DNA of 64,000 nt from Gemmatimonadaceae bacterium (GTDB lineage Bacteria; Gemmatimonadota; Gemmatimonadetes; Gemmatimonadales; Gemmatimonadaceae): positions 1,158 to 65,157 of the forward strand of contig JANNVN010000123.1 in the NCBI GenBank assembly GCA_031414435.1, in the 5' to 3' direction. The notes under the pieces are model-generated. The model was given only the letters and a program-made list of their open reading frames with translations. It made no database searches and had not been told where the DNA came from. A program made the position numbers and the translations under genes. Below are positions 2,395 through 58,016 of this stretch, piece after piece (the first letter of the stretch is position 1; the number at the start of each line of letters is the position of its first letter).

Positions 2395-2397
2395 TGG

Positions 2398-3642: not shown

Positions 3643-3654
3643 GTGGCAGGGAGG

Positions 3655-10872: not shown

Positions 10873-10907
10873 GAATTTGTCGTTCCTAGTAACGTTATAA
10901 GGTTATG
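10873..10907. promoter_or_regulatory. isolated AT-rich patch with 8-bp palindrome TAACGTTA, about 310 nt upstream of the PKS operon; candidate operator or promoter element
   Basis: The sequence gaatttgtcgttcctagTAACGTTAtaaGGTTATg is a sharp AT island in otherwise high-GC non-coding DNA. TAACGTTA (10890-10897) is self-complementary and GTTAT is repeated 3 nt apart. No convincing sigma70 -35/-10 spacing is present. Confidence 0.2.
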
Positions 10908-11215
10908 TGCGGCACAACGGAAACCACGATCTGGTCGATGATGCATGGCGTGACCGATTTCTGCCAGAAGTCTCCAGTCGGCCGTTCGATCGGGAACACC
11001 ACGGATGTCCTGCGGCCCGTCGCTGTAGACCGCAAGGATGTGTCAGGCAATCAGCGCCGTGTGGCCTGTGTCGCCCGGTCGAGGGGCGTGACTGTGGTCC
11101 CAGACGCTCTGCGGGTCGGGAGCCTCGGGCGCCATCGTGGCATCTCGCGCGGGATGGCGCTCCGCGGAAGGGCCATGTCTGAGACGTCTCGTGTGCGTCC
11201 GCGTGAGTTTGCGCC

Positions 11216-14200: not shown

Positions 14201-15778
14201 AATGTGGGGCCGATCGGGAATGCGAATGCTGCCCGGGATACCTCGCTTCACGCGATCGCCGCACTCGGGCGGGCGCTGCTGATCGAATCACCGGCGGCGT
14301 CGTTGCGACTGGTGGTTGGGACGACCGGCGCGCAGAGCGTGCATGGTGAGCCTGTGCAATACGCGGATCGTGCGCTGTCGACCGGCCCGGTGCTGGTACT
14401 GCCGATGGAGCACGCCGGCGTAGGTGCGAGTACGATCGACCTCGATGGCGCCACGGCCCGCGTTGGCTGGCGTGACGAGGCGGCACGACAGCTCGTCGAA
14501 GAGGCGTCAATTGACGACGCGGACGCGCTGGTTGCGGTCCGGTCCGGCGAACGCTGGGTCCGTCGATTCGTCGGTGGGGCACTCCCGAGAACCGAGACCC
14601 TGGCAGCGACGTTGACGCACCGCGGTGTCTGTCTGGTGACCGGAGGACTTGGCGGTATCGGCGTGACTCTGGCCGAGTGGCTGGCTCGCAATGTGTCGGC
14701 ACGGTTGGTTCTGACCTCTCGGACGGCACTGCCGAACCGTGGCGAGTGGGATGCGTGGCTGGCGGCGCACGACGGGTCGGATCCGACGTCGCAGCGCATC
14801 CGGGACATCGAGCGAATCGAGGCGGCTGGTGGCGAGGTTGTCGTGATCGGTGCGGACATTGCAAGCGTGACGGAAATGCGGAGTGCACTGGCCGCTGTCG
14901 AGGCTGGTTGGGGGCCTGTCACGAGTGTGATTCACGCCGCTGGCATTGCTGGTGACGGGTTGCTGGCGCTTTCGAGTCGCGATCATGCAGAAGAGGTGAT
15001 CAGTGCCAAGGTCGCGGGGTTGGACTGCCTCGTGGCTGTGCTCGGCGATCACGCCATGGAATTTGTGGTGCTGTGCAGCTCGATCAACGTGGTCGGCGGG
15101 GTCGCGGGGACTTACGCATACACGGCTGCCAACGCGTACCTCGACGCCTTCGCGGTGTCGGCGCAGCGGCCGGTGGGATGGCGGACGGTCTCGATTGCGT
15201 GGGATGCCTGGCGGGATGTCGGGATGGCGTCGAAGGTTGTGGTCCCGGATGCCATGCGCGCGGCTCGAGCGGCGTACGTCGCGGCCGGTATTTCACCGGC
15301 CGCTGGTGCGGACGCCTTCGCGCGCTGCCTCGAAAGCGGGTTCGCTCAGCAGGTCGTGTCGCCGTATGACATCGAGACGGCGCTGATCGATCGTCGGCGA
15401 TTACGCTCGGCCGCGCCCACAATCGTCGAGACCCGTCGCGCCGAAGCCCATGCGGCAGAAGTGTCGTCGGAGGGCAGGCCATCGTCTGCACACGTCGCCC
15501 CGGCAGGGGAAGTGGAGGAACGGCTGGCGTCAATCTGGGAGGAGCTCTTGGGCGTTACGCCGGTCGGAGTGCACGACAATTTCTTTGATCTGGGTGGTCA
15601 TTCGCTGCTGGCCACCCGTGTACTGGCGCGGATCGACAGCACCCTGGGCGTGCGCCTGCCGCTGCGAGACGTGTTCAGCGCGCCGACGATCCGGCTGCTT
15701 GGCGGCCTGATCGAGGCGCAGCTGCAGTCGGCGGCTGTTGCTGCGCATGGCGGTGAACGCGAAGAGTTTGAGTTGTGA
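11216..15778 (+). CDS. type I PKS, KS-AT(malonyl-type)-KR-T, with an NRPS-type carrier domain
   Basis: KS motifs: QTACSTS (Cys codon 11759-11761), EAHGTATPLGDPIE, KANLGHLDAAAG. AT motifs: GHSIGE (Ser codon 13085-13087) and HAFHS. Linker PLPTYPFERKRHW. KR motifs: VTGGLGGIG (about 14638-14661), YAYTAANAY, HAAGIAGDG. Carrier: DNFFDLGGHSLLATR (Ser codon 15602-15604). The KS begins at about residue 10, so there is no loading or docking region. C-terminal tail ...GGEREEFEL. Confidence 0.93.
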   Translation: MSTTPSASPRAIAIVGMSGRFPGARSLEQFWQNLRDGVESLDTFTEAELDAAGVDATTRALPGWVPRGTVLQDADHFDAAFFGYSPREAQIIDPQQRVFLECAWEAMEHAGYAREPDGAMVAVYAGSSINSYVYSQLLPNRELLASVGGYQVMLGNDKDFLTTRASYKLDLHGPSMAIQTACSTSLVAVYVACQALVRRECDMALAGGVSITFPQRTGYQYQEGMIFSPDGSCRPFDADSKGTRAGAGAGIVVLKRLEDALADRDTIHAVILGSAINNDGAGKAGYTAPSIDGQMEVIATAQALAGVSAESISYVEAHGTATPLGDPIEIAALTRVFRESTDARGFCTIGSLKANLGHLDAAAGVAGLIKTVLALQHRELPRQLNFRAPNPQLQLDTSPFRVATTCEPWAAGATPRRAGVSSFGIGGTNAHVVLEEAPAAAPSAIARSHHLVVLSAKTAEALDAATTNLVGYLRQDAAASLADVAYTLQVGRRPFPHRRSVVVCDAAEAITALSAPDRAPVTSNVHEGASRPVAFLFSGQGSQHAGMCAELYAHEPAFRAAVDRCADILHPHFGRDIRELLRDGTDQELSETAVAQPLLFVTGYALAVLWMSWGVQPSAMLGHSIGEYVAAHLAGVFSLEDALMLVSARGRLMQEMPPGEMLAVRLAADALTPRLGPGVEIAAINAPAMCSVSGTREAIAALAAQLEQSGIEHRPLHTSHAFHSAMMEPVLAPFRAQVARVSLSAPRIPYVSNVTGTWIRPEQATSPDYWASHLRGTVRFAEGVATLIAHQSVQLLEVGAGNALASLTRLTLGRDGASRVTASLPHPREARRELETMLDAVGRLWVSGVAVDWAGINAMASLRRVPLPTYPFERKRHWVDAPKPAPDAVARLYRREALDDWFYTPTWTRAPLARNRLLPLDGTWLVFGRADALEAAVLERLRARGASVIAVGAGEQFTSGDERFVVRGADPRDYESLIRTLRDKGADLRGVIHLWNVGPIGNANAARDTSLHAIAALGRALLIESPAASLRLVVGTTGAQSVHGEPVQYADRALSTGPVLVLPMEHAGVGASTIDLDGATARVGWRDEAARQLVEEASIDDADALVAVRSGERWVRRFVGGALPRTETLAATLTHRGVCLVTGGLGGIGVTLAEWLARNVSARLVLTSRTALPNRGEWDAWLAAHDGSDPTSQRIRDIERIEAAGGEVVVIGADIASVTEMRSALAAVEAGWGPVTSVIHAAGIAGDGLLALSSRDHAEEVISAKVAGLDCLVAVLGDHAMEFVVLCSSINVVGGVAGTYAYTAANAYLDAFAVSAQRPVGWRTVSIAWDAWRDVGMASKVVVPDAMRAARAAYVAAGISPAAGADAFARCLESGFAQQVVSPYDIETALIDRRRLRSAAPTIVETRRAEAHAAEVSSEGRPSSAHVAPAGEVEERLASIWEELLGVTPVGVHDNFFDLGGHSLLATRVLARIDSTLGVRLPLRDVFSAPTIRLLGGLIEAQLQSAAVAAHGGEREEFEL

Positions 15779-15945
15779 CACAGCAGACCACAGGCGAACT
15801 CCTCGACCAATTGCGCGCACTCGATGTCCGAGTGCGCGTGGAAGACGGACGGCTCCGCATCAACGCGCCCAAGGGGAGTCTGACGCCGGCGCTCGAAGCC
15901 GCGCTGGTCGCGCACCGGGAAGCTCTGGTCGCGGCGCTCGAAGAC
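15775..15945 (+). other. TubC-type N-terminal (beta-hairpin) docking domain of the NRPS
   Basis: GELLDQLRALDVRVRVEDGRLRINAPKGSLTPALEAALVAHREALVAALE fits the pattern L..L...GV.LW.EG..LR..AP.G.LT.EL...L..HK.E....L that I recall for TubC_N-type docking domains. Confidence 0.7.
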
Positions 15946-18900
15946 CAGGGAATCGGCGCCGGTCGTCCCGCGCTGGCGCCCGTGCTGCGGTCCGGTCCCC
16001 TGCGGCTGTCGTTTCTGCAGGAGCGCTTGTGGGTGATCCAGCAGCTGCAGCCGGATTCCACGGCATATAACCTCGTGATGTTGGCGCAGGAACAGGACGG
16101 CGTCGAACTGCCGCTCCTGCAGGCGGCGATCCGCGGTGTCGTCGAGCGTCACGAGATCCTTCGTGCTCGGTTTGCATCCGAGGGCGGCGCGCCGCACGTG
16201 CGCATCACGGTGGCAGAAGAGACGCGGGTCGTGTTCCGTGATCTGCGGGCGCTGGCACGCGACGAACAGCAGGCGATCATCAGCCAGGCTGTTCCCGTCG
16301 CGACACGCGAACCGTTCGATCTGGCCGCGGAGGCGGCGGTCCGGTTCACGATTCTGCAGACCGGTGACCGGCGATGCGCGTTGCTGATCGCTGCGCACCA
16401 TATCGCCCTCGACTCGTGGTCGCTCCCGGTGCTGCTCCGCGATCTGCTGATCGAGTATGAGACGCAGCAACGCGGCGCTGGCGACGCGCGGCCACCCTTG
16501 ACGCTGCAGTACGTGGACTATGCCCACTGGCAGCGTGAGACCATGGTGGCGGCCGGCGCGCAAGCGCGCCTCAAGTACTGGACAGACCGCCTTGCCGCCT
16601 TGCCGCAGCTGAGCACTTTCCCCACCGACCGGCCGCGTGCCATCGACGCGGTCGGCACGGGAGCGGTGTACGATTTCGCGTGGTCGCCGACGCTGTATGC
16701 CGGGGTTCGTGCATTGGCGCGTGAGCTCGACGCCACCGTGTACATGGTGCTATTGGCGGCGGTGGCCGTTCTGCTGACGAGATGCACGGCGCAGTCGGAT
16801 GTGGCGATCGGCAGTCCACTCGGGACACGGGACCTGTCGGAGCTGGAAGGGATGCTCGGGCCAATCCTGAATCCGCTCGTGACGCGCTTCGACGTGAGTG
16901 ACGATCCGACCTTTGCCGGAGTGGTTCAACGCGCCCGGGATGGCTTGCTGGATGGGCACTCACATCAGGACGTCCCATTTGAAGCGCTGGTGCAAGCGCT
17001 CAACCCCGCACGTTCGCTCGGGCATTCACCACTGTTCCAGGTCGCGGTCGTACTGCACAATGCTCCTGGCACGGGCGAAACACCGTCGATCCACAGCGGT
17101 GGTGCGATCTATGATCTGACCGTCTTCGCCGTGGAGCGCGCAGGCGCGCTGTACTGTTCGTTCGAGTATCGCTCAGATCTGTATGACGAGGCAACCATCG
17201 CGCGCCTCAGCACGCAACTTCAAACCGTGCTGAGTGCTGCAGTGCGCGACCCACAGCTAACGGTCTCGGGCATTCCGCTGCTCCCGGAGTCCGACGCAGC
17301 GCTGCTGATCGAGGCGACGAATCCCGCACCGATTGCCCTCGACCGGACGACGGTCGTGGAGCAGTTCACCCGGACCGTCGCCGCCAACGCTGCTCGCGTT
17401 GCTGTAGTGGCGTCGGACGGCACGTTCACCTACGCGGAAATCGACCGGCGCGCCTCGATCGTTGCTGAGGTCTTGCGCGCGGCAGGTGCCGGTCGCGGTT
17501 CGTTCGTCGCCCTCGCCACAGATCGTTCCAGCGCGACGGTGGTCGGTGCGCTCGGCATCCTCAAGTCGGGCGCCGCGTACGTGCCGGTCGACGTCTCGTA
17601 TCCGGCGGATCGTGTGGCGTTCATGCTCAGCGACAGTGGCGCGCGACATGTCGTGGCGACGCGGGAGAGTCTGCGGTCACTGCCCGGCCTCGGGTCGGGC
17701 GCGACACTGGTCCTGGTGGACGAAGTGGTCGATGCACCACCGTCCGCGGCGGCGGCACCGATGCCCCCCGTGCGCGAGGACGACATCGCCTACCTGATGT
17801 ACACCTCCGGTTCAACCGGAACGCCGAAGGGTGTGCTCGTCCCGCATGGGGCCGTCAGCAGCTTTCTGGGTGCGATGCGCTTACGCCCGGGGATATCGGT
17901 CGATGACGCGGTGCTGTGCGTCACATCGATGTCGTTTGATATCTCGGTCTTCGAAGTGTTCCTGCCACTGGTGACCGGTGCACGGACGATCATCGCATCG
18001 CGCGAGGAGGCCAGCGATGGACACCGAATGGCGCACCTGATTGGATCCGCCAGAGCCACAATTGTCCAGTCCACGCCGTCCGGCTGGCGACTGCTGATGC
18101 AGGCGAACTGGTCTGGCGGGCCGGAGATCTCGGCGATCGCCGGCGGCGAGCCGATGCCACAGGATCTGACCAACTGGCTCGGGGAGCGGGTCCGGTGGGT
18201 CTGGAACGGGTATGGTCCCACGGAAGCGACGGTGTACTCGTCGATGGCGCTCCTTACCGGCGCTGACATGATCACCATCGGCACGCCCGCCGCGAACACG
18301 CGAATTTATGTCCTCGATACGTCCAACCACGTCTTGCCGATCGGAGTGCCAGGCGAAATTTGCATCGGCGGCGATGGGGTCACACGCGGATACCACAACC
18401 GACCGGAACTGACGGCTGACCGATTCGTTGCCGACCCGTTCGTTTCCGGCGCCAGGATGTATCGCACCGGCGACGTCGGGCGTTGGCGTGCCGATGGCCG
18501 CCTCGAGCACCTCGGCCGGATCGATGGGCAGGTGAAGGTGCGCGGCTATCGGATCGAGACCGGTGAGATCGAGACGGCGCTTTCACAGCACCCGGGTGTG
18601 CGAACCGCAGTCGTCGGTGTCCGCAATGCCTCAGCGGACGATCCGCGACTGGTGGCCTGGGTGCAGCTCGAGCCGGAGGGCGATTGCACCACGAGCGAAT
18701 TGCGGCGGTACCTCCGCCAGACGTTGCCGGAGTTCATGATTCCATCGATGCTTATCATGGTCGAGTCGTTTCCATTGACGCCGAACGCCAAGATTGACAA
18801 GCGGGCACTACCTGATCCGTTTCTCAACGGGAGCGCCGCATCGCCGGAGTACATGGCGCCGACGACCCCGACCGAACGACTGATCGCGGCCGTCTGGTCG

Positions 18901-19104
18901 CGCCTGCTTGGCGTGGAGCGTATCGGCACCACGGACGCCTTCTTCGAACTGGGTGGGCATTCGTTGCTGGCCATGCGCGCGGCACTGGAGATTTCTGAGG
19001 CGACTGGTGTGCGGCTCGAGCCGCGCCTTCTCTTTTTCCGCACTCTGGATCAATTGGCCGTGGCCTGTGACACGCAGCTATCCGCCGGTTCGCGTCGCGC
19101 ATGA
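15775..19104 (+). CDS. NRPS module, Ndock(TubC-type)-C-A-PCP
   Basis: C domain: LSFLQERLWV and HHIALDS (16396-16416). A-domain cores: FTYAEIDRR, LKSGAAYVPVD, YTSGSTGTPKG, FDIS, NGYGPTEA, GEICIGGDGVTRGY, YRTGD, GRIDGQVKVRGYRIE, LPEFMIPS, NAKIDK. PCP: FFELGGHSLLA (Ser codon 18961-18963). The protein ends about 46 aa after that Ser, so no TE, R or E domain fits. Its GTG start overlaps the upstream stop (GTGA). Confidence 0.93.
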   Translation: MTQQTTGELLDQLRALDVRVRVEDGRLRINAPKGSLTPALEAALVAHREALVAALEDQGIGAGRPALAPVLRSGPLRLSFLQERLWVIQQLQPDSTAYNLVMLAQEQDGVELPLLQAAIRGVVERHEILRARFASEGGAPHVRITVAEETRVVFRDLRALARDEQQAIISQAVPVATREPFDLAAEAAVRFTILQTGDRRCALLIAAHHIALDSWSLPVLLRDLLIEYETQQRGAGDARPPLTLQYVDYAHWQRETMVAAGAQARLKYWTDRLAALPQLSTFPTDRPRAIDAVGTGAVYDFAWSPTLYAGVRALARELDATVYMVLLAAVAVLLTRCTAQSDVAIGSPLGTRDLSELEGMLGPILNPLVTRFDVSDDPTFAGVVQRARDGLLDGHSHQDVPFEALVQALNPARSLGHSPLFQVAVVLHNAPGTGETPSIHSGGAIYDLTVFAVERAGALYCSFEYRSDLYDEATIARLSTQLQTVLSAAVRDPQLTVSGIPLLPESDAALLIEATNPAPIALDRTTVVEQFTRTVAANAARVAVVASDGTFTYAEIDRRASIVAEVLRAAGAGRGSFVALATDRSSATVVGALGILKSGAAYVPVDVSYPADRVAFMLSDSGARHVVATRESLRSLPGLGSGATLVLVDEVVDAPPSAAAAPMPPVREDDIAYLMYTSGSTGTPKGVLVPHGAVSSFLGAMRLRPGISVDDAVLCVTSMSFDISVFEVFLPLVTGARTIIASREEASDGHRMAHLIGSARATIVQSTPSGWRLLMQANWSGGPEISAIAGGEPMPQDLTNWLGERVRWVWNGYGPTEATVYSSMALLTGADMITIGTPAANTRIYVLDTSNHVLPIGVPGEICIGGDGVTRGYHNRPELTADRFVADPFVSGARMYRTGDVGRWRADGRLEHLGRIDGQVKVRGYRIETGEIETALSQHPGVRTAVVGVRNASADDPRLVAWVQLEPEGDCTTSELRRYLRQTLPEFMIPSMLIMVESFPLTPNAKIDKRALPDPFLNGSAASPEYMAPTTPTERLIAAVWSRLLGVERIGTTDAFFELGGHSLLAMRAALEISEATGVRLEPRLLFFRTLDQLAVACDTQLSAGSRRA

Positions 19105-19886
19105 ATCTCCAGTTCTTCGGTTCCTCCAGCCGACAGTTGTTCGGCGCGTATCGCCCCCCCGCCAATGGCCTGCCATCGCGTGGTGCGGCGTTGCTCTGTC
19201 CTCCCTGGGGACAGGAGTACCTCGTCTCGCACCGGATCTTCCGCCGACTGGCCGTACGGCTGAGCGAGAGTGGATATCACGTCCTGCGCTTTGACTACTA
19301 CGGCACGGGGGATTCGGCCGGCGAGCGCGAGGAAGGCGACCTTCAGTCGTGGCTGGGTGACGCGCTGGTGGCGCTCGAGGAGCTCCGCGACATCTCGGGG
19401 TGTCAGACGGTGGCCACCTTTGGCATTCGGCTCGGGGCGATCGTCGCCTGGCAGCTCGCTTGTACGCGGAGCGACGTGCACAGCACGGTGTTGTGGGATC
19501 CAGTCGTGGATGGCTCGGAGTACGTGAGAGAGCTGGTCAAGGCGCAGGCTGAGGTGGATCGCTGGCTGCTGACCCCCGTGCGACATGAGTCGTCTCCTGA
19601 CCGGGCGCAGGACCTGCTTGGATTTCCGCTGACGGTGGCCATGCGCCGAAGCATTGAAGCCGTCACGCCGGACATCTTCCTGCACCGCACGGCAGCGCAT
19701 GTGAAACTGTTCTACTCAGACGCCCTGCCCGGTCAGGAGAAGAGTCACGACGCATTTCACGCAGCTGGGACGCCGTTTCATGCGGAGACAATCCGTGGTC
19801 AGACGCCGTGGCGCGAGGATGAGTCGATTGGCGCCGGCGGACTGCCGGTGCTGGTGCTCGAACGCATGGTCGAGATCCTTCGATGA
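19101..19886 (+). CDS. alpha/beta-hydrolase-fold protein with Arg at the nucleophile position (probable pseudoenzyme); resembles 'exosortase A system-associated hydrolase 2'
   Basis: PPWGQEYLVSHRIFRRLAVRLSESGYHVLRFDYYGTGDSAG is an oxyanion/beta3-type region. The nucleophile elbow reads TVATFGIRLGAIVA, i.e. G-I-R-L-G, with Arg110 at codon 19428-19430. There is no obvious C-terminal catalytic His motif. ATGA overlaps at both ends. Confidence 0.65.
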   Translation: MNLQFFGSSSRQLFGAYRPPANGLPSRGAALLCPPWGQEYLVSHRIFRRLAVRLSESGYHVLRFDYYGTGDSAGEREEGDLQSWLGDALVALEELRDISGCQTVATFGIRLGAIVAWQLACTRSDVHSTVLWDPVVDGSEYVRELVKAQAEVDRWLLTPVRHESSPDRAQDLLGFPLTVAMRRSIEAVTPDIFLHRTAAHVKLFYSDALPGQEKSHDAFHAAGTPFHAETIRGQTPWREDESIGAGGLPVLVLERMVEILR

Positions 19887-20833
19887 ACTCAGGCATCCGC
19901 GAGCGGGTGGTGCGATTCGGTGCGGGAAACGGTCTGGCTGGCATTCTGTCGACCAGCCGTGACGCTCCCCCCGGTTTGCCGTTCGTGGTAATCGTGAATG
20001 CGGGCATCATCCATCGGGTCGGTCCCAATCGGCTCTATGTCGATGTCGCGCGCGCGGTCGCGGCGCTCGGGTATCCGGTCCTGCGATTCGACCTCGCGGG
20101 CCTCGGTGACTCCGAAGCGACCCGTACCGAAGCATCGTTACTTGAATCGGCGTTGCTCGACGTGAACACCGCGTTCGACTACCTGGCCAGCACGCATGGC
20201 GCGACTGCGTTCCTCGCATTTGGCCTGTGCTCCGGTGCGAACTACGCCCTGCTGACCGCGTTCAGGGAGCCGAGGGTCATCGGCGTTCTGGTCATCGACC
20301 CGACGGTGACACGTACGCGGCGGAGCGTGATGGTGCATTACGCACGTCGATTGAGAAACCTGTCGACGCTGCGCTCGATGCTGACGCTGAGCCACCCCAA
20401 GTTTCTGCAGCGAATCGAACGCCTGCGCAGTCTGGCGGTCGCGCGCGCGGCGCAGGGACAGAGTGGGCAAAACGCCGAGCCACCTCGCGAGAAAGTCACG
20501 GCCGAGGACAGCCGCCGTTCGCTCGAACAGCTGATCGCGCGGGGTACGCAGCTGATGTTCGTGTTCACGGGTGGCGTCAACCACGTGTACAACTACCGGA
20601 ACCAGCTGTACGACCTGCTGCCGGGGTTCGACTTTCGCGGCCGGCTGCGTCTGGACTACATGCCCGACACAGATCACACCGTGAGCGATGGGCGCGGACG
20701 CCGTCAGTTGATCGATTCGGTGAGCGAGTGGCTGGCGCAGTCGTTTCCCCGCACGGGTGCAACAGACACAGCGGTGTCCGCGATCGTCGAACCACCGCGA
20801 GCGGTGGTGGGTCGTGTGGGAGACTCGCCGTGA
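19883..20833 (+). CDS. alpha/beta-hydrolase-fold protein with Cys nucleophile (GLCSG); resembles 'exosortase A system-associated hydrolase 1'
   Basis: VVIVNAGIIHRVGPNRLYVDVARAVAALGYPVLRFDLAGLGDSE. The elbow AFLAFGLCSGANYAL is G-L-C-S-G, with Cys116 at codon 20228-20230. A candidate catalytic His lies in LDYMPDTDHTVSD near the C-terminus. Confidence 0.65.
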   Translation: MNSGIRERVVRFGAGNGLAGILSTSRDAPPGLPFVVIVNAGIIHRVGPNRLYVDVARAVAALGYPVLRFDLAGLGDSEATRTEASLLESALLDVNTAFDYLASTHGATAFLAFGLCSGANYALLTAFREPRVIGVLVIDPTVTRTRRSVMVHYARRLRNLSTLRSMLTLSHPKFLQRIERLRSLAVARAAQGQSGQNAEPPREKVTAEDSRRSLEQLIARGTQLMFVFTGGVNHVYNYRNQLYDLLPGFDFRGRLRLDYMPDTDHTVSDGRGRRQLIDSVSEWLAQSFPRTGATDTAVSAIVEPPRAVVGRVGDSP

Positions 20834-26207: not shown

Positions 26208-26213
26208 CGCGCA

Positions 26214-50800: not shown

Positions 50801-51549
50801 TCAGCATCAACTGGGGGCCGTGGGCAGAGATCGGCGCGGCGGCGGAGCGTCACGTCACCGGTGGCAGCTTCCTGAAGCAGATCGCGCCGAAGGAAGGGCT
50901 GCAGGCCCTGGAGGTGGCGTTGCGTCTGACGCCCGATGGCCGTGCATTCGCGCGCTCGCAGGTCGCCGTGCTCGCTGCGGACTGGTCGCAGATCACCACC
51001 GGTGAGAACGCGCTGCTGCAGTCGCCGCTGTTCAGGCTCCTCGCAACGCTCACGGTCGGATCCACGATGAGGGTACGTCGTGCGGCGGGGCAGCGGCCAG
51101 CTACGCTTTCCCTGCGCGAGCGACTGCAGGCCACGGCCGCGAACCGCCGTCGGGCCGCGTTGGTCGATGAAGTGCGACAACTGACGGTGCGCGTACTTGG
51201 CATTCAGCAGGTGGGAGCACTCGATGTGCACGAACCATTGCGACAGCTCGGGCTGGATTCGCTGATGGCGGTCGAGCTCCGGAATCTTCTCGGCAAGACG
51301 GTTGGTCGGACACTGCCAGCAACGATCACGTTCGACCATCCGTCGGTGCACGCGCTGGTGGAATACCTTGGGATCGAAGTCTTCGGCGAGGAGTTGTCGC
51401 TGCAGCGCGCTCCGGCGCTTGTATCCGAGGTACCGTCTTCACGTGCCCCCGTGCCGGCCACCGCGAACTTCGATGACATGACGGATGATGAACTCGCCGT
51501 GCGCCTTGCGCAGCGGCTGGATGGCCTACGAACCGAGGACGATTCATGA
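44842..51549 (+). CDS. type I PKS, Ndock-KS-AT(malonyl-type)-DH-cMT-KR-ACP
   Basis: N-terminal FSPKRLALLADELQRRV. KS: DTACSSS (Cys 45463-45465). AT: GHSLGE (Ser 46810-46812), HAFHS. DH: HPLVD...HRIFGRLLVPSPA (His 47719-47721), FGPRF, LEACFH. cMT: LRILEVGAGTGSTS (about 49147-49178). KR: ITGGLRGLG, HAAGLLDDG. ACP: LGLDSLMA (Ser 51259-51261). No ER motifs. Tail MTDDELAVRLAQRLDGL. Confidence 0.93.
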   Translation: MQDFLSRISHFSPKRLALLADELQRRVQTLEQAQRAPIAIVGIGCRFPGGADTPEQYWELLSRGVDAISEVPASRWDINAYYDPDPDAPGKMSTRFGGFLAGVDQFDPYFFGISPREAQRMDPQQRLLLEVTWEALEHAGLSPDGLSETKTSVFVGMSASDYFQVMHDGGLASFDAYTASGTAHSIASGRLSYLLGTRGPSVSIDTACSSSLVAIHEAVQSLRRGESDIALAGGVNLILRPEITVALTKSHMMAPDGRCKAFDARADGFVRGEGCGMLVLKRLADAEAAGDTVIALIRGSAANQDGRSNGLTAPNGPAQEAVLRDALLDAQLEGRQVQVVEAHGTGTSLGDPIEVRALAKVLGVDRVRSLPIVVASVKANIGHLEACAGVAGVIKMALSLQHGMVPAQQHFVEPNPFIPWDELPVRVPTNLESWPTTHDGPRIGGVSSFGFSGTNVHMLLEAAPVRAVHDAELERPRHLIAISARTDRARAVLAAEYRAVLASGRMSLADFAHTANVGRAAMPQRMAVIAGSADEAVALLDGFASGESSPGAVTGTAAVRAPEVAFLFTGQGSQYPGMTRSLYGTQPAFRDALDACAELLRPLLPVPLLPLLFPDDVAGSLLDDTVYTQPALFAVEYALAAMWQSWGVRPTAVMGHSLGEFVAACVAGVITLPDALRLVTERGRLMGALPRDGAMVAVMADEARVRSLADAHQGEVSIAAVNGPQNIVVSGRATAIESIISSAASHGISTTRLHVSHAFHSRLMAPMIEAFRQVAESITYHPPAIDVISNVTGERFGIMTASAEYWCRHVRAPVLFARGVQTLAGMGCTAFIEVGPHPTLLSLARQAVPDDGRLWLPSVRRGGDDWSQVLESLALLYVHGAAIDWSGFDASYPRQRQILPRYPFQRERFWVDTAPRERPELASAERLHPLVDREVLQAATPERVFEARLSTARFAYLSDHRIFGRLLVPSPALMAMVHAVSAEAFRSPAITVSDFSMRSPIPLDDGQVVTTQLLLGESVNGSMPFRVASLPAGRESWTTCATGSIERAGSPPPDLDLRQLQQQNPTSIDIAGYYAWLASLELEFGPRFRGIAALTHGVNSALALITTPADLDVREYALHPAVLEACFHVVGAALRTQDRVVDKPFLLSYVERMTIHRPLPTSFWTHVALDGDAEHAMQAGMARAVITLLDETGAVLALFEGVQLQRMLVRPMFETSLLPAVQQMLHEISWIPGPPADLPFPTPRALATVVAPRIRIVAADNGLTEYADFSRSLDRLCTSYILDAFVALGAEWHAGSRFDTLGLQARLGVLSRHERLFARLLGILAEDGILRRDSDQWEVIAPPEFNDPELAYGKVHAAYPSGHSTLVLTRRCARELAAVLRGSTDPIALLFPGGSLTEMEQLYQTSPPARCYNQLLADSLRPIRDTWPGHRPLRILEVGAGTGSTSAFVLPMFAGKEIEYTFTDVSPLFLNRAREKFADVPGMQYALLDIGSDPVTQGFTSGHYDVVIGANVMHATPDLRRTMSHVRSLLVPGGVTVLLEGTSPQRFGDLTVGLLDGWWAFTDTDRRHYALMPRPAWATLLRDAGFASSSTIVEADAGPVLEEQAIFVAQAPGEPVPATKRHWLMLPDSSGIAAQLATRLEDAGDDVTTIAGDDLSPISAALSATNRRGAPITGVLHLGALDVQLTDDTSADTLWRGQQRLLSQALQTVQTLAADASPVPLWFVTRGAQSAALGDAANAAQATLWGFSHVVAIEHPELRCRRLDLDANAPIDTMLDGIVSELRSLSTEDQVALRGDERLLRRLAAYAPASAPRIGFAADRTYLITGGLRGLGLRVAEWLVEQGVRSLALVGRRAPDASAEQVMTRLRGRGATVVPMRGDVSLEADVIGVLDQIRETMLPLSGVVHAAGLLDDGVIAAQNWSRFERVMGAKVLGSWHLHRLAGPLDFLVLFSSGASVAGSAGQSNHAAANAFEDGLAWYRQARGQPTVSINWGPWAEIGAAAERHVTGGSFLKQIAPKEGLQALEVALRLTPDGRAFARSQVAVLAADWSQITTGENALLQSPLFRLLATLTVGSTMRVRRAAGQRPATLSLRERLQATAANRRRAALVDEVRQLTVRVLGIQQVGALDVHEPLRQLGLDSLMAVELRNLLGKTVGRTLPATITFDHPSVHALVEYLGIEVFGEELSLQRAPALVSEVPSSRAPVPATANFDDMTDDELAVRLAQRLDGLRTEDDS

Positions 51550-54500
51550 CCGAACCACAACAACCCGACTACCGCGCGCTTCTCACGCGATCGCTGGTAG
51601 CTATCGAAAAGCTGGAAGCGAAACTCGCGGCCGCAGAACATGCCAGGTCCGAGCCGATTGCGGTTGTCGGCATGGCGTGCCGCTTTCCCGGTCATGCGAA
51701 CGACCTCGAAGGCTATTGGTCGCTGCTCTCGCGCGGCGGGGACGCCGTCACGGTGGTGCCGTCGCATCGATGGGACGCCGAGGCGTCGTTTGATCCGGAT
51801 CCTGACGCCCTCACGAAGAGCTATACCAAGTGGGGCGCGTTCATCGATGACGTCGAGACGTTCGACGCAGCGTTCTTCGGCATTTCTCCGCGCGAGGCGG
51901 TGTCGCTGGATCCTCAGCACCGGCTCCTGCTCGAGGTCACATGGGAAGCACTCGAGCACGCCGCGATCGCACCGTCATCGCTGGCAGGGACACGAGCGTC
52001 GGTCTTCATTGGCATCTCGACGATCGACTACGCCAACATGATCGGGGACATTGTCGGATCGCGGAACGGCGATGCATATGCTGCGTCAGGATCGGCGCAC
52101 AGCATCGCCTCCGGCCGCCTGTCGTACTTCCTTGGCGCGCACGGACCGAACTACGCAGTCGACACGGCATGCTCATCATCGGTGGTTGCGATTCACGGTG
52201 CCATTCAATCGTTGCGGAACGGTGAAACCGGGCTTGCAATCGCAGGCGGTGTGAGCTTGACGCTGTCCAACCTCGGTTCGATCCTGACGTCGCGCGCACG
52301 CATGATGTCATTCGATGGACACTGTAAGACCTTTGACGAGTCGGCCGACGGATACGTGCGCGGTGAGGGCTGCGGGATGGTGGTTCTCAAGCGACTGTCC
52401 GATGCTGAACGTGACGGCGACCGGATTCTCGCCCTGTTGCGAGGCTCGGCCATCAACCAGGATGGTCGCAGCAGCGGCCTGACCGCGCCGAATGGGACGG
52501 CGCAGGAGGCCGTGATCCGCGATGCGCTCGCCAACGCGCGTCTGACACCGCAGGACATCAGCGTGATCGAGGCGCATGGCACTGGAACACCGCTTGGCGA
52601 CCCCATCGAGATGAAGGCGCTCGGTGCGGTCTTCGGTGCGCGATCGAAGGACGAACCGCTGCTGGTCGGTTCGGTGAAGACGAATATCGGGCATCTCGAA
52701 GCGGCGTCCGGCATTGCGGGCATCATCAAGGTGATCCTCGCAATGCAGCACCGCGAGGTGCCACCGCACCTGCACTTCAGCACGCCCAATCACCTGATTC
52801 CCTGGGACACGATCCCGGTCCGGGTGCCCACGGCGTCGATGCCGTGGAGTACGCCGCCAGGAGTGCCGCGTCGGGCTGGCGTCAGCTCTTTCGGCTTCAG
52901 CGGGACGAACTCGCATGTGATCCTCGAAGAGGCGCCGGCGCCGCTCACGACGATGGAGGTCGGGCGTGTTGCGCGGGCGCAAGTTCTCGTGCTCTCTGCG
53001 CAGACCAGCGGCGCGCTGCGCAGTCAAGTCGCGAACTACGCCGGGTTCCTCGAGCGTGAAGAGGTGCCGCCCGTTGGGGATGTGGCATTCACGGCGGCGG
53101 TCGGCCGTTCGCACCTGCCGGAGCGCCTCGCGCTGGTTGCCGAGAGCGCATCGGCCGCTGCTGCGCAGCTGCGGCAGTTTCTCGACGACGAAACGACACC
53201 TGGTGTCACTGCGCGCCGGTTTACCTCCGGCACCGCACCGGAGATCGGATTTCTGTTCTCGGGTCAGGGCGCCCAGTATCCCGGTATGTCGCGCGAATTG
53301 TACGAGACGGAGCCGGTGTTCAGGAGCGCGCTGGATGCCTGTGCGGCCATCGTTGACCCGCTGCTGCCATCGCCGCTGCTCCCGGTCATCATGGGCACGG
53401 CGGAGTTCAGCGAGCAGCTGGATGACACCGCGTTCACGCAGCCGGCGCTCTTCGCGGTCGAGTACGCGCTCGCGCAGCTCTGGCGATCATGGGGCGTCAC
53501 GCCTGCGGTGGTGATGGGGCACAGCGTTGGAGAGTACGTCGCAGCCTGTCTGGCCGGCGTGTTCTCGCTGGTCGACGGACTGCGATTGATCGCTGCCCGC
53601 GGTCGGCTGATGAGCGCGCTGCCGCGCGACGGTACAATGGTCGCCGTGTTTGCACCGCGCGCGCGCGTCGCGGCGGCGCTGGCGGGATTCGAAGCCGACG
53701 TCGACATCGGCGCCGTGAATGGTCCGACGAATACCGTGATCTCCGGGCGGGCATCAGCGATCGATGTGATTCTCCGCGCGCTGGCATCCGACGGAATCGA
53801 GTTCGCCCGGCTGAATGTGTCCCATGCGTTCCATTCACCGATGATGGCGCCCATACTCGACGAGTTTGAACGCATCGCCGGAACGGTGGCCTTCTCGCTG
53901 CCGGACATCGGACTCGTGTCAAACGTCACGGGTCGCCTGGCGGGCAGTGAGATCACGACGGCCGCATACTGGCGTCGGCATGTGCGCGATGCCGTCCTCT
54001 TCACTGACTCGATTGCCACGTTGCACGCGGAGGGCATCCACACCTTCCTCGAGATTGGCCCGGCACCGATTCTGAGCGGGATGGGACAACGATGCGAGCG
54101 CGGCAACGACGCCGTCTGGCTGTCCTCGATGAAAAAGGGTCGAAGCGATCGTGAGTCGATGCTCGAAAGTGTCGGGCGTCTGCACCTCGAAGGGCAGCCG
54201 ATCGAATGGAAGGCCGTCTGCGACGCCGGCGCGCGTCGCGTCGAACTGCCGTCGTACCCGTTCCAGCGTGAGCGGTACTGGTTCGACAGCACGCCACGCC
54301 AGACCCTGACGCCGGGCGTCGCGGGACGCAGCACCGGTCACCCGCTTCTCGGCGATCGCGTTTCGAGCCCGGTGCTCCTCTTCCAGACGTCGCTCTCGAT
54401 CGCCAACACGCCATGGCTCTCCGATCACCGGATCTACGATGCTGCGCTGCTTCCGGGTGCGGGGTTCATCGAACTTGCCCTCGCGGCTGCCAGGGAAGTG

Positions 54501-57500
54501 ATCGGGACGGAGGACGTTGCACTGTCAGATGTCTCATTGCGCGAAGGACTGACCGTTCCGGAAGCCGGAACCGTCACGGCGCAAGTCGTCGCGACACCAC
54601 GTGACGATGGGACCTTCCTGATTCAGGTGTTCAGCGAGGTGCTGGCAGATGCGGAGAGCGATACGGCTGCAACCTGGCGTACGCATCTCGAAGCAACCGC
54701 GTCGCCATCGTCCACCGCAGCACCGGTGAGCGGCGTTCCGTCGCTGGCGGCCGAGGGCCGGGTCGACAAGGATGTGAACGCGTACTACGACCACCTCACC
54801 GCTCAGGGTGCCCTCTACGGTCCCGGGTTTCGCTGTATCACGTCCATCGGGCGTTCAAACGGAGAAGTGGTGGGCCGTATGGAGCTGCCCGAGGCCCTCG
54901 GTGACGATCGACTCCTGTTCATGGTGCACCCCGCGATGCTCGATGCCGCCATTCAAATGGTCGGCGTCGGGCTGCCGTGGGCCGATGACCCGCAACAGAC
55001 TGACGATGTGTTCCTCCCCGTCAGTGTCGCGAGCTATCGCGTGTTCCAATCCGCGCCAACCGTCGCCTGGTGCCACATCCACGCGTTGCGGGTCAATCCG
55101 ACCCGGAGCAGTATCTCGACAGACTTTCTGCTCATCGATCCTTCGGGTGCAACGATCGCCGCAGTCGAAGGGCTCGAGTTGCACCGTGTGTCACGTGCGG
55201 CGATGCAGAGGGCTGCGGACAAACCCGTGCGACCCGATTGGATGCTGGAAGTTGACTGGCAGGCCGCACCGCTCGACGGCGCGGCGCAGCCGGTTACCGG
55301 TAACTGGTTGCTCGTGAGCGATGGTGCACCGTTGGCGGCAGAGCTGGCCGCGCAGTTGACCGAACGAGGAGCATCGGTCTTCGTCGCCGAGCACAGCGCG
55401 CAATTCACGGACACTGCGCAGGGCTGGACTCTCGACGTCACTGACGCGTCGCACTTCCAGCGTCTCTTCGCCGAGGCGCCGCCGCGCGTCGGTACACCGT
55501 GGACCGGTGTCGTCTCGATGGTGGGCACGCCGACGGATCCAGAGGACCTCGACGGCGCAGCGCTGTCCCGGTTGCATGCGCATCGTGTCGGGGCGCTGCT
55601 GGCACTGGTTCCCGTGATGGCCGACAGCGGTGCAAAGCTCTGGATCATCACACGCGGGACGCAAGCCGTCGGCGATGTCGTCCCTGACCTCGTCGACGCG
55701 CCGATCTGGGGGCTCGCGAACGTGATCGCCAGCGAGTACCCGGCGTTGCGCGTGGTCCGCATCGACCTCGATACGACGGTGCGCCGCGACACCGCGGCGC
55801 TGCTGGCCGCCGCCGTGACCGTCGCCGACAACGAGGATCGCGTGGCGCTGCGTGGCACCCAGCGTTACGTGGCTCGGTTGGCACCGGGGGTGTTGCGCAA
55901 CGTCGAGGGACTTCCGCCACGACGCCTCGAGATCATGGAGCGTGGGATTCTCGAAAACCTCGCGCTGAATGTCGTGCCGCGTGAGGCCCCCGGCCCCAAT
56001 CAAGTCGAGATCCGTGTGTACGCCACCGGGCTCAACTTCCGCGATGTGCTCAATGCCCTGGGGATGTATCCCGGCGACCCGGGCCCACTGGGCAACGAGT
56101 GCTCGGGTGTCATCACCGCCGTTGGTGAAGGGGTCGATGATCTCTTCGTGGGTGACGAGGTGGTCACGATGATCGATCGCAGTTTCGCAACCTACGTCAT
56201 CGCGCTCGCGATCCAGACGGTACGCAAGCCGGCGAACCTGAGCTTCGTCGAAGCCGCGACGATTCCTGTCACGTTTCTCACCGCAGAGTATGCACTCAGC
56301 ACGCTGGGCGGCATGAAGCGCGGCGACAAAGTGCTGATCCATGCGTCGACCGGTGGAGTTGGCATGGCAGCGATTCAACTCGCTCGCCGCGCCGGTGCCG
56401 AGATCTTCGGAACCGCCGGCACGCCGGCCAAGCGCGCGATGGCGCTGGCGCTCGGCGTGGACCATATCTCCGACTCGCGCTCGCTGGTGTTCGCCGAGGA
56501 CTTCGACCGCGTCACCAACGGCTCAGGTGTCGACATCGTCCTGAACTCCCTTGCCGGCGACTTCATTCCCACCAGCCTGCGACTGCTCAAGCGCGGCGGC
56601 CACTTCATCGAAATCGGCAAGACCGGTATCTGGGACAAGGAAACGGTCGCCGAGTCGTTTCCCGGCATACACTATCATCCCCTCTATCTGGGCGAGATCG
56701 CCCTCGCCGAGCCACAGTTCACGCACGACATGCTGCAGCGGCTGATGGATGATTTCGCGACTGGTGCCCTCACGCCGCTGCCGCAGAAGGTGTACCCGCT
56801 GGAGCGCGCGGAGGAAGCCTTCCGTTTCATGGGCCAGGGGTTGCACACCGGGAAGATCGTCATCACGCAACACCGGACACCGGAGGTCCGTCCGGATGCG
56901 AGCTACCTGATAACCGGTGGCCTCGGCGGACTTGGCGTCGCCTGTGCTGAGTGGCTGGTCGGCCTTGGTGCACGAAACGTGGTGCTGCTCGGTCGGCGTG
57001 CGCCGTCTGCGAGCGTGGAGGTACAGCTCGACGCGTTGCGCGCCACTGGCGTCACGGTGCTGGTGGCGTCATGCGATATCGCGGTTGAGAGCGATGTGGC
57101 GGCGGTGCTGGCGCAGATTGCCGCGTCGTTGCCACCACTTCGGGGCATCCTGCATGCCGCGGGTGTGGTGGACGACGGCATGCTGCCCGAGCAGACGCTT
57201 GACCGATTTGCACGGGTCATGGCTCCCAAGGTGCTTGGCACCTGGAACCTCCACCGGCTCACGCGCCAGCTGCCGATCGACTTCTTCGTGCTCTTCTCCT
57301 CCGGCGCGGCGCTGCTCGGATCGCCGGGACAGAGCAACTATGCAGCAGCAAACAGCTTCATGGACTCGATGGCCTTCGTGCGTCGGGCCGAGGGACGGCA
57401 TGCGCTGAGCATCAACTGGGGGAGCTGGTCCGAGGTCGGCATGGCTGCTGAAGTCGGCGACGCACATCGTCGACGCTGGGCGGCACAGGGACTCGGCATG

Positions 57501-58016
57501 ATCACACCGGACAAGGGTGTGCGAATGCTGCAGGATCTGCTGCAGCGTTCCGAGTCGCCGAATGTGGCGGCACTCCCGATCGACCGGGCGAAGATGCCAC
57601 GCAGCCTCGGACCGCTGTACGAGCGCCTGGTTGCGCCCGTGGCGAAGCAGACGGCGCAGGCGATCGGTGGTGGCGATGTGCTGAAGCGGATCACTGATGC
57701 AGGACCCGAGGATCGCGCACCAATTCTGACCGCATTCCTGACCGAGCAGATCGTCCGCGTGCTTGCGCTCTCGTCGGCGAGTCGCGCCCGGCCCGATCTG
57801 TCACTGATGGATATCGGGATGGATTCACTCACGGCGATGGAGCTGAGGAATCGCGTGCAAGGTGCGGTCAAGGTTCGACTGTCGGTCGCCGACCTGCTGC
57901 AGGGCCCAACCATCAACGAACTCACGGTCAGTATCCTGAGTGAGCTTGCACTGGGCGATGGCGGCGCGCTCGCCGCGGTCGAGTCGGGGCCGGTATGGGA
58001 GGAAGGTTCGTTGTGA
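51546..58016 (+). CDS. type I PKS, Ndock-KS-AT(malonyl-type)-DH-ER-KR-ACP; ends at the ACP with no release domain
   Basis: N-terminal YRALLTRSLVAIEKLEAKL. KS: DTACSSS (Cys 52170-52172). AT: GHSVGE (Ser 53523-53525), HAFHS. DH: HPLLGDR...HRIYDAALLPGA (His 54426-54428), YGPGF, LDAAIQ. ER: LNFRDVL, LIHASTGGVGMAAIQLAR. KR: ITGGLGGLG, HAAGVVDDG. ACP: IGMDSLTA (Ser 57825-57827). Only about 62 aa follow the ACP Ser. Tail ...ESGPVWEEGSL. Confidence 0.93.
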   Translation: MTEPQQPDYRALLTRSLVAIEKLEAKLAAAEHARSEPIAVVGMACRFPGHANDLEGYWSLLSRGGDAVTVVPSHRWDAEASFDPDPDALTKSYTKWGAFIDDVETFDAAFFGISPREAVSLDPQHRLLLEVTWEALEHAAIAPSSLAGTRASVFIGISTIDYANMIGDIVGSRNGDAYAASGSAHSIASGRLSYFLGAHGPNYAVDTACSSSVVAIHGAIQSLRNGETGLAIAGGVSLTLSNLGSILTSRARMMSFDGHCKTFDESADGYVRGEGCGMVVLKRLSDAERDGDRILALLRGSAINQDGRSSGLTAPNGTAQEAVIRDALANARLTPQDISVIEAHGTGTPLGDPIEMKALGAVFGARSKDEPLLVGSVKTNIGHLEAASGIAGIIKVILAMQHREVPPHLHFSTPNHLIPWDTIPVRVPTASMPWSTPPGVPRRAGVSSFGFSGTNSHVILEEAPAPLTTMEVGRVARAQVLVLSAQTSGALRSQVANYAGFLEREEVPPVGDVAFTAAVGRSHLPERLALVAESASAAAAQLRQFLDDETTPGVTARRFTSGTAPEIGFLFSGQGAQYPGMSRELYETEPVFRSALDACAAIVDPLLPSPLLPVIMGTAEFSEQLDDTAFTQPALFAVEYALAQLWRSWGVTPAVVMGHSVGEYVAACLAGVFSLVDGLRLIAARGRLMSALPRDGTMVAVFAPRARVAAALAGFEADVDIGAVNGPTNTVISGRASAIDVILRALASDGIEFARLNVSHAFHSPMMAPILDEFERIAGTVAFSLPDIGLVSNVTGRLAGSEITTAAYWRRHVRDAVLFTDSIATLHAEGIHTFLEIGPAPILSGMGQRCERGNDAVWLSSMKKGRSDRESMLESVGRLHLEGQPIEWKAVCDAGARRVELPSYPFQRERYWFDSTPRQTLTPGVAGRSTGHPLLGDRVSSPVLLFQTSLSIANTPWLSDHRIYDAALLPGAGFIELALAAAREVIGTEDVALSDVSLREGLTVPEAGTVTAQVVATPRDDGTFLIQVFSEVLADAESDTAATWRTHLEATASPSSTAAPVSGVPSLAAEGRVDKDVNAYYDHLTAQGALYGPGFRCITSIGRSNGEVVGRMELPEALGDDRLLFMVHPAMLDAAIQMVGVGLPWADDPQQTDDVFLPVSVASYRVFQSAPTVAWCHIHALRVNPTRSSISTDFLLIDPSGATIAAVEGLELHRVSRAAMQRAADKPVRPDWMLEVDWQAAPLDGAAQPVTGNWLLVSDGAPLAAELAAQLTERGASVFVAEHSAQFTDTAQGWTLDVTDASHFQRLFAEAPPRVGTPWTGVVSMVGTPTDPEDLDGAALSRLHAHRVGALLALVPVMADSGAKLWIITRGTQAVGDVVPDLVDAPIWGLANVIASEYPALRVVRIDLDTTVRRDTAALLAAAVTVADNEDRVALRGTQRYVARLAPGVLRNVEGLPPRRLEIMERGILENLALNVVPREAPGPNQVEIRVYATGLNFRDVLNALGMYPGDPGPLGNECSGVITAVGEGVDDLFVGDEVVTMIDRSFATYVIALAIQTVRKPANLSFVEAATIPVTFLTAEYALSTLGGMKRGDKVLIHASTGGVGMAAIQLARRAGAEIFGTAGTPAKRAMALALGVDHISDSRSLVFAEDFDRVTNGSGVDIVLNSLAGDFIPTSLRLLKRGGHFIEIGKTGIWDKETVAESFPGIHYHPLYLGEIALAEPQFTHDMLQRLMDDFATGALTPLPQKVYPLERAEEAFRFMGQGLHTGKIVITQHRTPEVRPDASYLITGGLGGLGVACAEWLVGLGARNVVLLGRRAPSASVEVQLDALRATGVTVLVASCDIAVESDVAAVLAQIAASLPPLRGILHAAGVVDDGMLPEQTLDRFARVMAPKVLGTWNLHRLTRQLPIDFFVLFSSGAALLGSPGQSNYAAANSFMDSMAFVRRAEGRHALSINWGSWSEVGMAAEVGDAHRRRWAAQGLGMITPDKGVRMLQDLLQRSESPNVAALPIDRAKMPRSLGPLYERLVAPVAKQTAQAIGGGDVLKRITDAGPEDRAPILTAFLTEQIVRVLALSSASRARPDLSLMDIGMDSLTAMELRNRVQGAVKVRLSVADLLQGPTINELTVSILSELALGDGGALAAVESGPVWEEGSL

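Follow-up and report, generated by a model that had tools for sequence, protein, structure and literature searches.

What path does a growing chain take through an assembly line whose docking domains contradict the order of its genes? This question is raised by a hybrid cis-acyltransferase (cis-AT) polyketide synthase (PKS)/nonribosomal peptide synthetase (NRPS) gene cluster of ~47 kb, which lies in a 64,000-nucleotide stretch of contig JANNVN010000123.1 from a Gemmatimonadaceae bacterium (the window, to whose numbering all positions refer). The cluster is a single run of translationally coupled genes on the + strand (11216-58930). We label the window genes G1-G11, H1, H2 and TEII, and L-numbers (L001-L169) denote the fetched loci of relatives. 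Two of the PKS proteins, G1 and G11, end in an acidic EExxL tail; one protein, the NRPS G2, begins with a TubC-type head; and two proteins that begin with a ketosynthase (KS) domain, G1 and G6, carry no head. A preliminary description of this DNA read the pattern as two lines converging on the one condensation-adenylation-peptidyl carrier protein (C-A-PCP) module of G2, or as competition or iteration at that junction. Comparison with related loci instead points to a single linear line that very probably runs in rotated gene order and from which one bridging subunit, here called NRPS-A, has been lost; decayed fragments of its gene remain upstream of G1.

Docking heads and tails in the window

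Class 2 Cur-type helical pairs and pairs of a short linear motif (SLiM) with a beta-hairpin head are textbook classes of docking domains, and a non-colinear gene order that docking resolves is familiar. A Cur-type coiled-coil head of 34-37 amino acids precedes the KS of G7 (26214-32789), G8 (32786-37210), G9 (37207-44841), G10 (44842-51549) and G11 (51546-58016), and these five heads, like the two headless KS proteins (9 residues before the KS in G1, 12 in G6), were found as the preliminary description had claimed. The G8 head aligns with the CurL head (4MZ0, E = 3e-8) over the head itself, and that of G11 is conserved among its orthologues. G6-G10 end in tails of the pattern (L/M)(T/S)D(D/E)E..., that of G6 (21603-26207) being LTDSDALLALRRRR. 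A Protein Data Bank (PDB) sequence search with the C-terminal tails matched acyl carrier protein (ACP) parts only and did not show the tail class; it is their pattern that marks these acidic tails as helical, and gene order suggests that each pairs with the head that comes next. The arrangement resembles that of class 2 systems such as CurG/H, CurK/L and Bamb_5925/5924, in which a coiled-coil head of ~35 amino acids (LSPxxRALxxL...) stands before the KS and an acidic helical tail follows the ACP, and with the tails judged by pattern we see no notable difference from them. Five consecutive junctions follow gene order, and the chain 21603 > 26214 > 32786 > 37207 > 44842 > 51546 (G6-G11) proposed earlier holds.

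G2 (15775-19104) begins with a beta-hairpin head (15775-15945) that matches TubC_N (PF18563; amino acids 8-55, E = 4.8e-13, above the Pfam cut-off) and, in the PDB, Bamb_5915 (6CGO, 1.6e-6), TubC (2JUG, 3.4e-6), AerJ (8AQQ, 4.4e-5) and EpoB (5T7Z). AlphaFold2 predicts a helix-strand-strand-helix-helix fold for it, with a predicted local distance difference test score (pLDDT) of 63-70, and it lies directly upstream of the C domain. A profile of 209 such heads, run against all six frames of the window, agrees with the earlier statement that there is a single TubC-type head here; the next match to the profile has E = 0.11. At its other end G2 carries no conserved C-terminal docking tail.

The C-terminus of G1 (11216-15778) reads GGEREEFEL (15749-15775). 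In all orthologues this tail is kept as REEFEL, REEIEF, REEILL or EEFVL, each directly before a TubC_N-first NRPS, and by its conservation and position REEFEL would be the cognate partner of the G2 head. G11 ends in ...GPVWEEGSL, with the WEEGSL motif at 57996-58013; the preliminary description had the motif right but assigned all of GPVWEEGSL to 57990-58013, which encodes eight residues (PVWEEGSL) and not nine. Thirty-six of 38 G11 orthologues (55-76% identity) end in [WFYL]EEG[STIE]L (35 in [WFY]EEG[ST]L) or the variant WEEVEL, and the other 2 end in a helical Cur-type tail instead. The linker before the motif is hypervariable in the 38 orthologues, without conservation. Across the 161 fetched loci, endings of the form EE..[LIVF]$ were found in 14/16 carrier-ending open reading frames (ORFs) that precede a TubC_N-first ORF, compared with 0/104 of those that precede a KS-first ORF, where the carrier tails are basic. 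Tail conservation and this association support the claim that both EExxL tails are partners of TubC-type heads, and they argue that neither tail is there by chance.

According to a review (PMC9113145), a SLiM touches the hairpin with no more than its five final residues, cross-reaction is known between SLiM/head pairs of unrelated systems, and iterative use is documented for the rhabdopeptide synthetase, which has 2 SLiMs and 3 heads. The window resembles TubB-TubC, EpoA-EpoB, Bamb_5917-Bamb_5915 and Kj12A/B/C in that an N-terminal domain with the fold alpha-beta-beta-alpha-alpha stands before a C domain and a short acidic/hydrophobic motif ends the upstream carrier; as in known systems, SLiM/beta-hairpin pairs serve PKS-ACP>C steps as well as PCP>C steps. 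Unlike those systems, one tail of the window has no head in the locus, and the gene of its partner has decayed.

NRPS-A in related loci and its relic in the window

In all 15-16 related loci NRPS-A is found directly upstream of the G1 orthologue (L001-L006, L015, L018, L034 and L087-L092, with L095 partial). The hosts comprise at least 6 Gemmatimonadaceae, Hydrogenophaga, Rhodopila, three Rhodobacterales and several metagenome contigs, and members include Gemmatimonadaceae (GCA_014379355, GCA_034522895), MFD02832.bin.1.4 and Roseovarius/Allosediminivita; L087 is ENA ERZ27315111 k141_7221534. By G1 the closest relatives are L005 (80% identity) and L006 (75%), within a closest group of 74-80%, and the nearest relatives that bear a name are metagenome-assembled genomes (MAGs) of Gemmatimonadaceae. 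G1, G2, H1, H2, TEII and the downstream PKS genes of the window are orthologous to those of the relatives and stand in the same order, with G1 ~50-80% and G2 44-77% identical, and the block NRPS-A, G1 orthologue, G2 orthologue, H1 and H2 is common to every readable locus. A search of the literature on Gemmatimonadota found no published product for this cluster family, which appears to be uncharacterised.

NRPS-A takes two forms, TubC_N-C-A-PCP (~1137 amino acids) and, in the subfamily of the window, TubC_N-C-TubC_N-C-A-PCP (~1655 amino acids), as at L005:435-5399, L001:420-5402, L006:5246-10273 and L087:10001-14980. G2 is itself a member of a widespread TubC_N-C-A-PCP protein family of ~1100 amino acids. 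The double-C form of NRPS-A has an N-terminal head (A1) and an internal one (A2, residues ~515-585), two C domains with HHxxxD and one A-PCP; two heads with one of them between the C domains is a layout not mentioned in the accessible text of the review cited above. The head classes of this subfamily are A1, GVELWfEGsRLRFRAP (TubC-like); A2, DVRLxLDGdKLKVNAP; and B, DVhLrvEgGRLRVNAP (G2), and the A2 head is closer to the G2 head than A1 is.

The neighbours of NRPS-A indicate which partners it connects. Where PKS genes precede the block (L002, L004, L095), a G11-type PKS lies directly upstream of NRPS-A and ends there in ...DREEMTL, ...VVWELGTL and ...VEREEISL, respectively; where PKS genes follow the block, which is also the layout of the window (L001, L006, L089, L090), the PKS that comes first behind TEII lacks a head, as G6 does. 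The C-terminus of NRPS-A is a conserved basic tail, RARARAARQVHV and variants of it, and the N-termini of the G1 orthologues are short. In 80 of the 98 loci with the carrier visible, the carrier upstream of the G1-KS homologue belongs to an NRPS (A-PCP) module. The KS of G1 has the signatures TACSTS and GNDKDFLTTRASYKL, which we take to be those of hybrid, NRPS-fed KS domains. More generally, carriers that feed G1-type hybrid KS domains have tails rich in R, K and Q, such as the one just given or RRQRALERRR, and the receiving KS is almost devoid of an N-terminal extension, as at the G1 N-terminus of the window (11216-11242); a basic tail facing a short KS N-terminus may represent a distinct, little-described mode of carrier>KS docking.

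The window shares with this family its tails, heads and glycine-like A-domain codes. All other members seen have an intact NRPS-A; also missing from the window are the phosphopantetheinyl transferase (PPTase) and ATP-binding cassette (ABC) genes that precede NRPS-A in L005, L087, L001 and L089. In another MAG (L088:426-5387, GCA_034522895.1) a pair of frameshifts that compensate each other, ~130 nt apart, splits NRPS-A, which contains in-frame stops and is called as 875 + 594 amino acids; either the assembly is wrong here or NRPS-A has been inactivated a second time in the family, at an early stage.

Upstream of G1 the window has a gap of ~800 bp after a phosphoesterase gene (7676-10408), with no intact NRPS-A. 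Searching with the L005 and L001 proteins by tblastn, we recovered the A domain in four pieces that keep their order along 10679-11114 on the + strand (summed E = 3e-15), in the same orientation and syntenic place as the gene in relatives and spread over three reading frames. The pieces correspond to NRPS-A residues ~1265-1300, 1305-1337, 1340-1372 and 1473-1508 (of ~1655), the relic as a whole to ~1259-1372 and ~1468-1508, the third piece being the A5 core (MCGTTETTIWS compared with MYGPTETTIWS, 64% identity). A profile of 66 NRPS-A proteins matched the same place, at 10905-11003 with E = 3.6e-9 plus three weaker colinear pieces. Nothing is left 5' of residue ~1260 (3.8 kb), where both docking heads, the two C domains and the larger part of the A domain would lie, and the relic also lacks ~100 residues between pieces 3 and 4 (~1373-1467) and the last 146 residues.

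At codon positions 1+2 the identity of the relic to L005 is 0.69, compared with 0.95 between the functional genes of L006 and L005 over the same segments. In either comparison the identity at third positions is ~0.5, and four-fold sites of the window and L005 are ~0.52 identical, near saturation. The decay seen in this remnant, put at 1.2 kb of NRPS-A, comprises 3 or more frameshifts, 2 large deletions and an excess of ~0.3 substitutions per site, and the relic appears to be old. Scans of 10300-11400 for promoters, terminators and repeats gave no mark of a deletion boundary or of a new promoter.

We conclude that two tails with one head, together with a second headless KS, are in all appearance the scar of a gene loss. 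With NRPS-A gone, the WEEGSL tail and the headless KS of G1 are left as orphaned partners of the lost subunit, which accounts for both oddities without any convergence. The docking pattern does contradict gene order, as first described, and the heads, tails and gene order of relatives bear this out; however, two lines converging on one module, or competing there by design, are not what the family presents, as in every relative examined an NRPS-A that brings a TubC-type head of its own stands between G11 and G1. Of the two starting points proposed earlier, G6 stands and G1 does not, its KS being of the NRPS-fed kind.

Probable path of the line and its possible present use

On the strength of synteny and of the docking motifs conserved in relatives, the ancestral path was in all likelihood G6>G7>G8>G9>G10>G11>NRPS-A>G1>G2>release. 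The preliminary description had seen here something other than a simple linear system; the same evidence suggests that the ancestral line was single and linear, with its genes in rotated order. G6 has no head and G2 no conserved tail, as one would expect of a first and a last subunit. The chain would start on G6 and be carried by the five Cur-type helical junctions as far as G11, whose WEEGSL tail would dock on A1, the TubC-like N-terminal beta-hairpin head of NRPS-A. NRPS-A would add a small amino acid, as its glycine-like A-domain code suggests, and its PCP with the conserved basic tail would pass the chain to the headless hybrid-type KS of G1. There a malonate unit would be added and reduced to a beta-hydroxy group, after which REEFEL would dock on the beta-hairpin head of G2, G2 would add a second glycine-like residue, and H1 and H2 would release the product. 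The window would later have lost NRPS-A, PPTase and the ABC genes, keeping an A-domain fragment of ~440 bp. As in other assembly lines whose gene order differs from the biosynthetic order, docking motifs give the path, which here starts mid-operon and ends at the front; unlike in those lines, the rotation is conserved across phyla, and in the window the loop-closing subunit has been lost as well.

The A-domain codes were read at the Stachelhaus positions, with a GrsA reference giving the expected DAWTIAAICK as control. The code for glycine is DILQLGLIWK. NRPS-A proteins have DILAVCMIWK, DILALGMIWK and DILQLGMIWK, G2 has DIFSAAGVYK, and proteobacterial G2 orthologues have DILQISLIWK and DILAACLIWK. 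The A domains of NRPS-A and G2 thus both look glycine-like, which in chemical terms would allow G2 to take the place of NRPS-A. Because both codes are glycine-like and a KS-AT-ketoreductase (KR) module lies between them, the predicted core of the family product is an N-acyl-(4-amino-3-hydroxybutyryl)-glycine with a partly reduced, C-methylated polyketide chain.

Some points weigh against this reconstruction. The ancestral system, whose NRPS-A has two apparently active C domains, would have three heads for two tails; the extra head and C unit of NRPS-A might serve a second acylation or a second donor. The partners of heads and tails are assigned by synteny and conservation. The timing of the loss is rough: synonymous sites are close to saturated, and the relic can be aligned in its best-preserved parts only. 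Single-sequence AlphaFold2 fusions of G2(1-75) with the last 30-35 amino acids of G1, the positive control, or of G11 docked neither tail (tail pLDDT <50) and so do not discriminate between the tails. Separately, we considered G1 as a second starter (KSQ or self-priming) and rejected it on the Cys-His-His triad of its KS and on its homologues, which are overwhelmingly NRPS-fed.

The ~14,800 megasynthase codons of the window are open, with no stop codon or frameshift, in a series of eleven translationally coupled genes. The KS, AT, KR and carrier motifs checked are intact (in G1, TACSTS, HGTAT, NLGH, GHSIG, HAFH, YxxxN and GGHS), as are HHxxxD and the A-domain cores of G2, and the Cys-His-His triad is kept in all 7 KS domains of the window. 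The dehydratase (DH) motif HxxxGxxxxP is present in G9 and G10 and was not found in G7 and G11 with the pattern used. At codon positions 1+2, G1 and G2 are 0.87-0.88 identical to L005. We counted lineage-specific changes at conserved sites, that is, sites at which three to five outgroups agree, and found 46 in G1 of the window versus 25 in the sister lineage, and 30 versus 23 in G2 (three outgroups). Overall, lineage-specific change is 1.3-1.8x that of the sister lineage, and none fell in the head, PCP or tail of G2 (five outgroups). These counts suggest at most a mild relaxation, not free decay. Given the divergence of the relic, we roughly estimate a probability of ~0.01-0.03 that WEEGSL would have stayed unchanged under neutrality. 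Because the relic is far decayed and the other genes are open and constrained, the remaining genes appear to be still under selection and the truncated cluster is most likely still in use. Within G1, the AT (~12816-13765, amino acids 535-850) holds 19 lineage-specific changes versus 5 in the sister, with GHSIG and HAFH intact; the KS has 6 versus 4, and KS, KR and PCP show no excess. The excess in the AT could reflect relaxed constraint or a shifted handling of extender units after the loss of NRPS-A.

It is improbable that the cluster is dying, that is, that the loss of NRPS-A broke the pathway and left a non-functional remainder whose docking pattern has no present meaning. The bridging subunit, PPTase and ABC genes are indeed gone, and the raised counts in G1 (46 versus 25, with 19 versus 5 in the AT) would fit such a course; however, the absence of any stop or frameshift in ~14,800 codons contrasts with the heavily decayed relic, the catalytic motifs checked are intact, and G2 is without excess change. 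Far less likely still is a line that simply follows gene order, G1>G2>G6>...>G11, and lets its product go from G11, in which WEEGSL would be a chance likeness or a tail for a release enzyme. Such a line would suit the gene order and the translational coupling from G1 to G11, but it would have to join a tailless G2 to a headless G6 across three unrelated genes and begin on a KS that is of the NRPS-fed type and not a starter. Nor does it sit well with an ending, WEEGSL or closely similar to it, that 36 of the 38 orthologues share and that lies beside the NRPS-A head where the genes adjoin, or with the EE..[LIVF] ending in 0/104 carrier tails that feed a KS.

Two routes by which a single line without its local NRPS-A might still run appear to us about equally probable, the first perhaps slightly ahead, and each is tentative. 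One is crosstalk at the single head, with WEEGSL of G11 and REEFEL of G1 both docking on G2 (G11>G2>G1>G2). G2 would N-acylate a glycine with the polyketide and pass the acyl-Gly to the KS of G1, which would return the chain for a second glycine; in a variant of this route, the two tails would compete at the G2 head and give a mixture of products. The other is complementation in trans by an intact NRPS-A with an A1-type head elsewhere in the genome, in a second cluster or as a relocated copy, the relic then being the dead local copy. Crosstalk is suggested by the presence of one head for two tails whose last five residues share E-E-x-x-L, by the two Arg of the RLR strand that the G2 head keeps as class A1 does, by the glycine-like code of both A domains, and by the retention of G1, G2 and WEEGSL beside an old relic. 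The two tails hardly differ in the single-C subfamily (DREEMTL/DREEIEF in L002, REEISL/REEIEL in L095), and the rhabdopeptide synthetase and the crosstalk between systems described in the review (PMC9113145) may serve as precedent. Against it, we see no compensatory change in the head, PCP or tail of G2, in the N-terminus or KS of G1 or in the G11 tail; throughout the double-C subfamily head class A1 stays separate from B, and the WEEGSL tail from REEFEL; the basic tail usual in carriers that feed a G1-type KS is missing from G2; and the AlphaFold2 fusions, in which neither tail docked, the positive control included, lend it no support. The perfect conservation of the WEEGSL tail, G1 N-terminus and G1 KS is explained most simply if the partner persists, which favours a copy in trans. 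Such a copy would, however, require an earlier duplication for which there is no evidence; the PPTase and ABC genes linked to the cluster were lost together with NRPS-A; and the best non-self NRPS-A matches are 72-73% identical to the protein of the sister lineage, two of these three matches lying on contigs of other organisms. Among the best 120 matches from 5.8 billion proteins, none is at least 75% identical to the protein of the sister lineage, although the source genome may be incomplete, and the relic is no closer to any of these 120 homologues than to L005. The L087 NRPS-A (P0256) was considered as the intact copy of the source organism and set aside, as the L087 DNA is only ~70% identical to the window and comes from another organism.

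Since the loss of NRPS-A, competition or iteration at the G2 head is a live possibility. We offer as a possible but somewhat doubtful proposal that the window is a natural module-deletion experiment, in which docking crosstalk would have rescued the line after gene loss, with G2 used twice per product and the tails competing, as the preliminary description had suspected. Should the truncated cluster still make a product, as its conservation suggests, it would be a measure of the SLiM/beta-hairpin crosstalk that an assembly line can bear, a property that engineers try to use in deleting or swapping modules. It was an unpaired, conserved tail that pointed to a missing subunit, and the relatives then revealed the relic outside the region first flagged; a cluster-mining pipeline that takes colinearity with gene order for granted would put this line in the wrong order and overlook its incompleteness. 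The points of interest are the loss of a bridging subunit with both docking partners left and conserved, the NRPS-A with a doubled head-plus-C unit and the two-hydrolase release block, in a family spread widely over Gemmatimonadota and several Proteobacteria, with the predicted core acyl-Gly-(C2, beta-OH)-Gly.

Gene content and surroundings of the cluster

Domain architectures were assigned by Pfam searches of the window proteins. G1 is KS-AT(malonyl, HAFH)-KR-PCP(GGHSL) and G2 is TubC_N-C(HHIALDS)-A-PCP. G6, whose start overlaps the TEII stop codon, is KS-AT-KR-ACP; G7 is KS-AT-DH-enoylreductase (ER)-KR-ACP; G8 is KS-AT-C-methyltransferase (cMT)-ACP; G9 is KS-AT-DH-cMT-ER-KR-ACP; G10 is KS-AT-DH-cMT-KR-ACP; and G11 is KS-AT-DH-ER-KR-ACP. 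Without a KR, the G8 module is predicted to leave an alpha-methylated beta-keto group within an otherwise reduced chain. The AT of G6 (22506-23471, amino acids 302-623 from the 21603 start) carries VASH, and the other 6 ATs carry HAFH or YAFH, which suggests that the first module uses another extender or starter unit.

Between G2 and G6 lie H1 (19101-19886, +) and H2 (19883-20833, +), both alpha/beta hydrolases of Pfam Hydrolase_4, and TEII (20830-21606, +), a free-standing type II thioesterase (TE; PF00975, 5e-44) with a GTG start that overlaps the H2 stop codon. Pfam found no TE domain and no loading module in any megasynthase of the window. Because none carries a TE domain, H1 and H2 are candidate chain-release enzymes, the only candidates besides the type II TE, and by synteny they always come after the G2 orthologue (15 loci). 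H1 and H2 also have distant NCBIfam matches to hydr2_PEP and hydr1_PEP (exosortase-A-associated hydrolase 2 and 1), with scores of 2e-25 and 1e-24, far under the curated cut-offs.

The operon ends with the gene of an EamA-type membrane transporter (58013-58930, +), which is translationally coupled to G11 and rests on a weak Pfam EamA match and the gene call in L085 and L086. Upstream of the cluster, the - strand encodes a MacB/DarD-like ABC ATPase, a membrane-fusion protein and an ADOP-family duplicated permease (1669-6150), and the + strand gene that borders the relic (7676-10408) encodes a 910-amino-acid beta-propeller/phosphoesterase protein unrelated to the cluster. Because relatives have a PPTase and an ABC2 transporter on that side instead, we conclude that the left border of the cluster was replaced together with NRPS-A.

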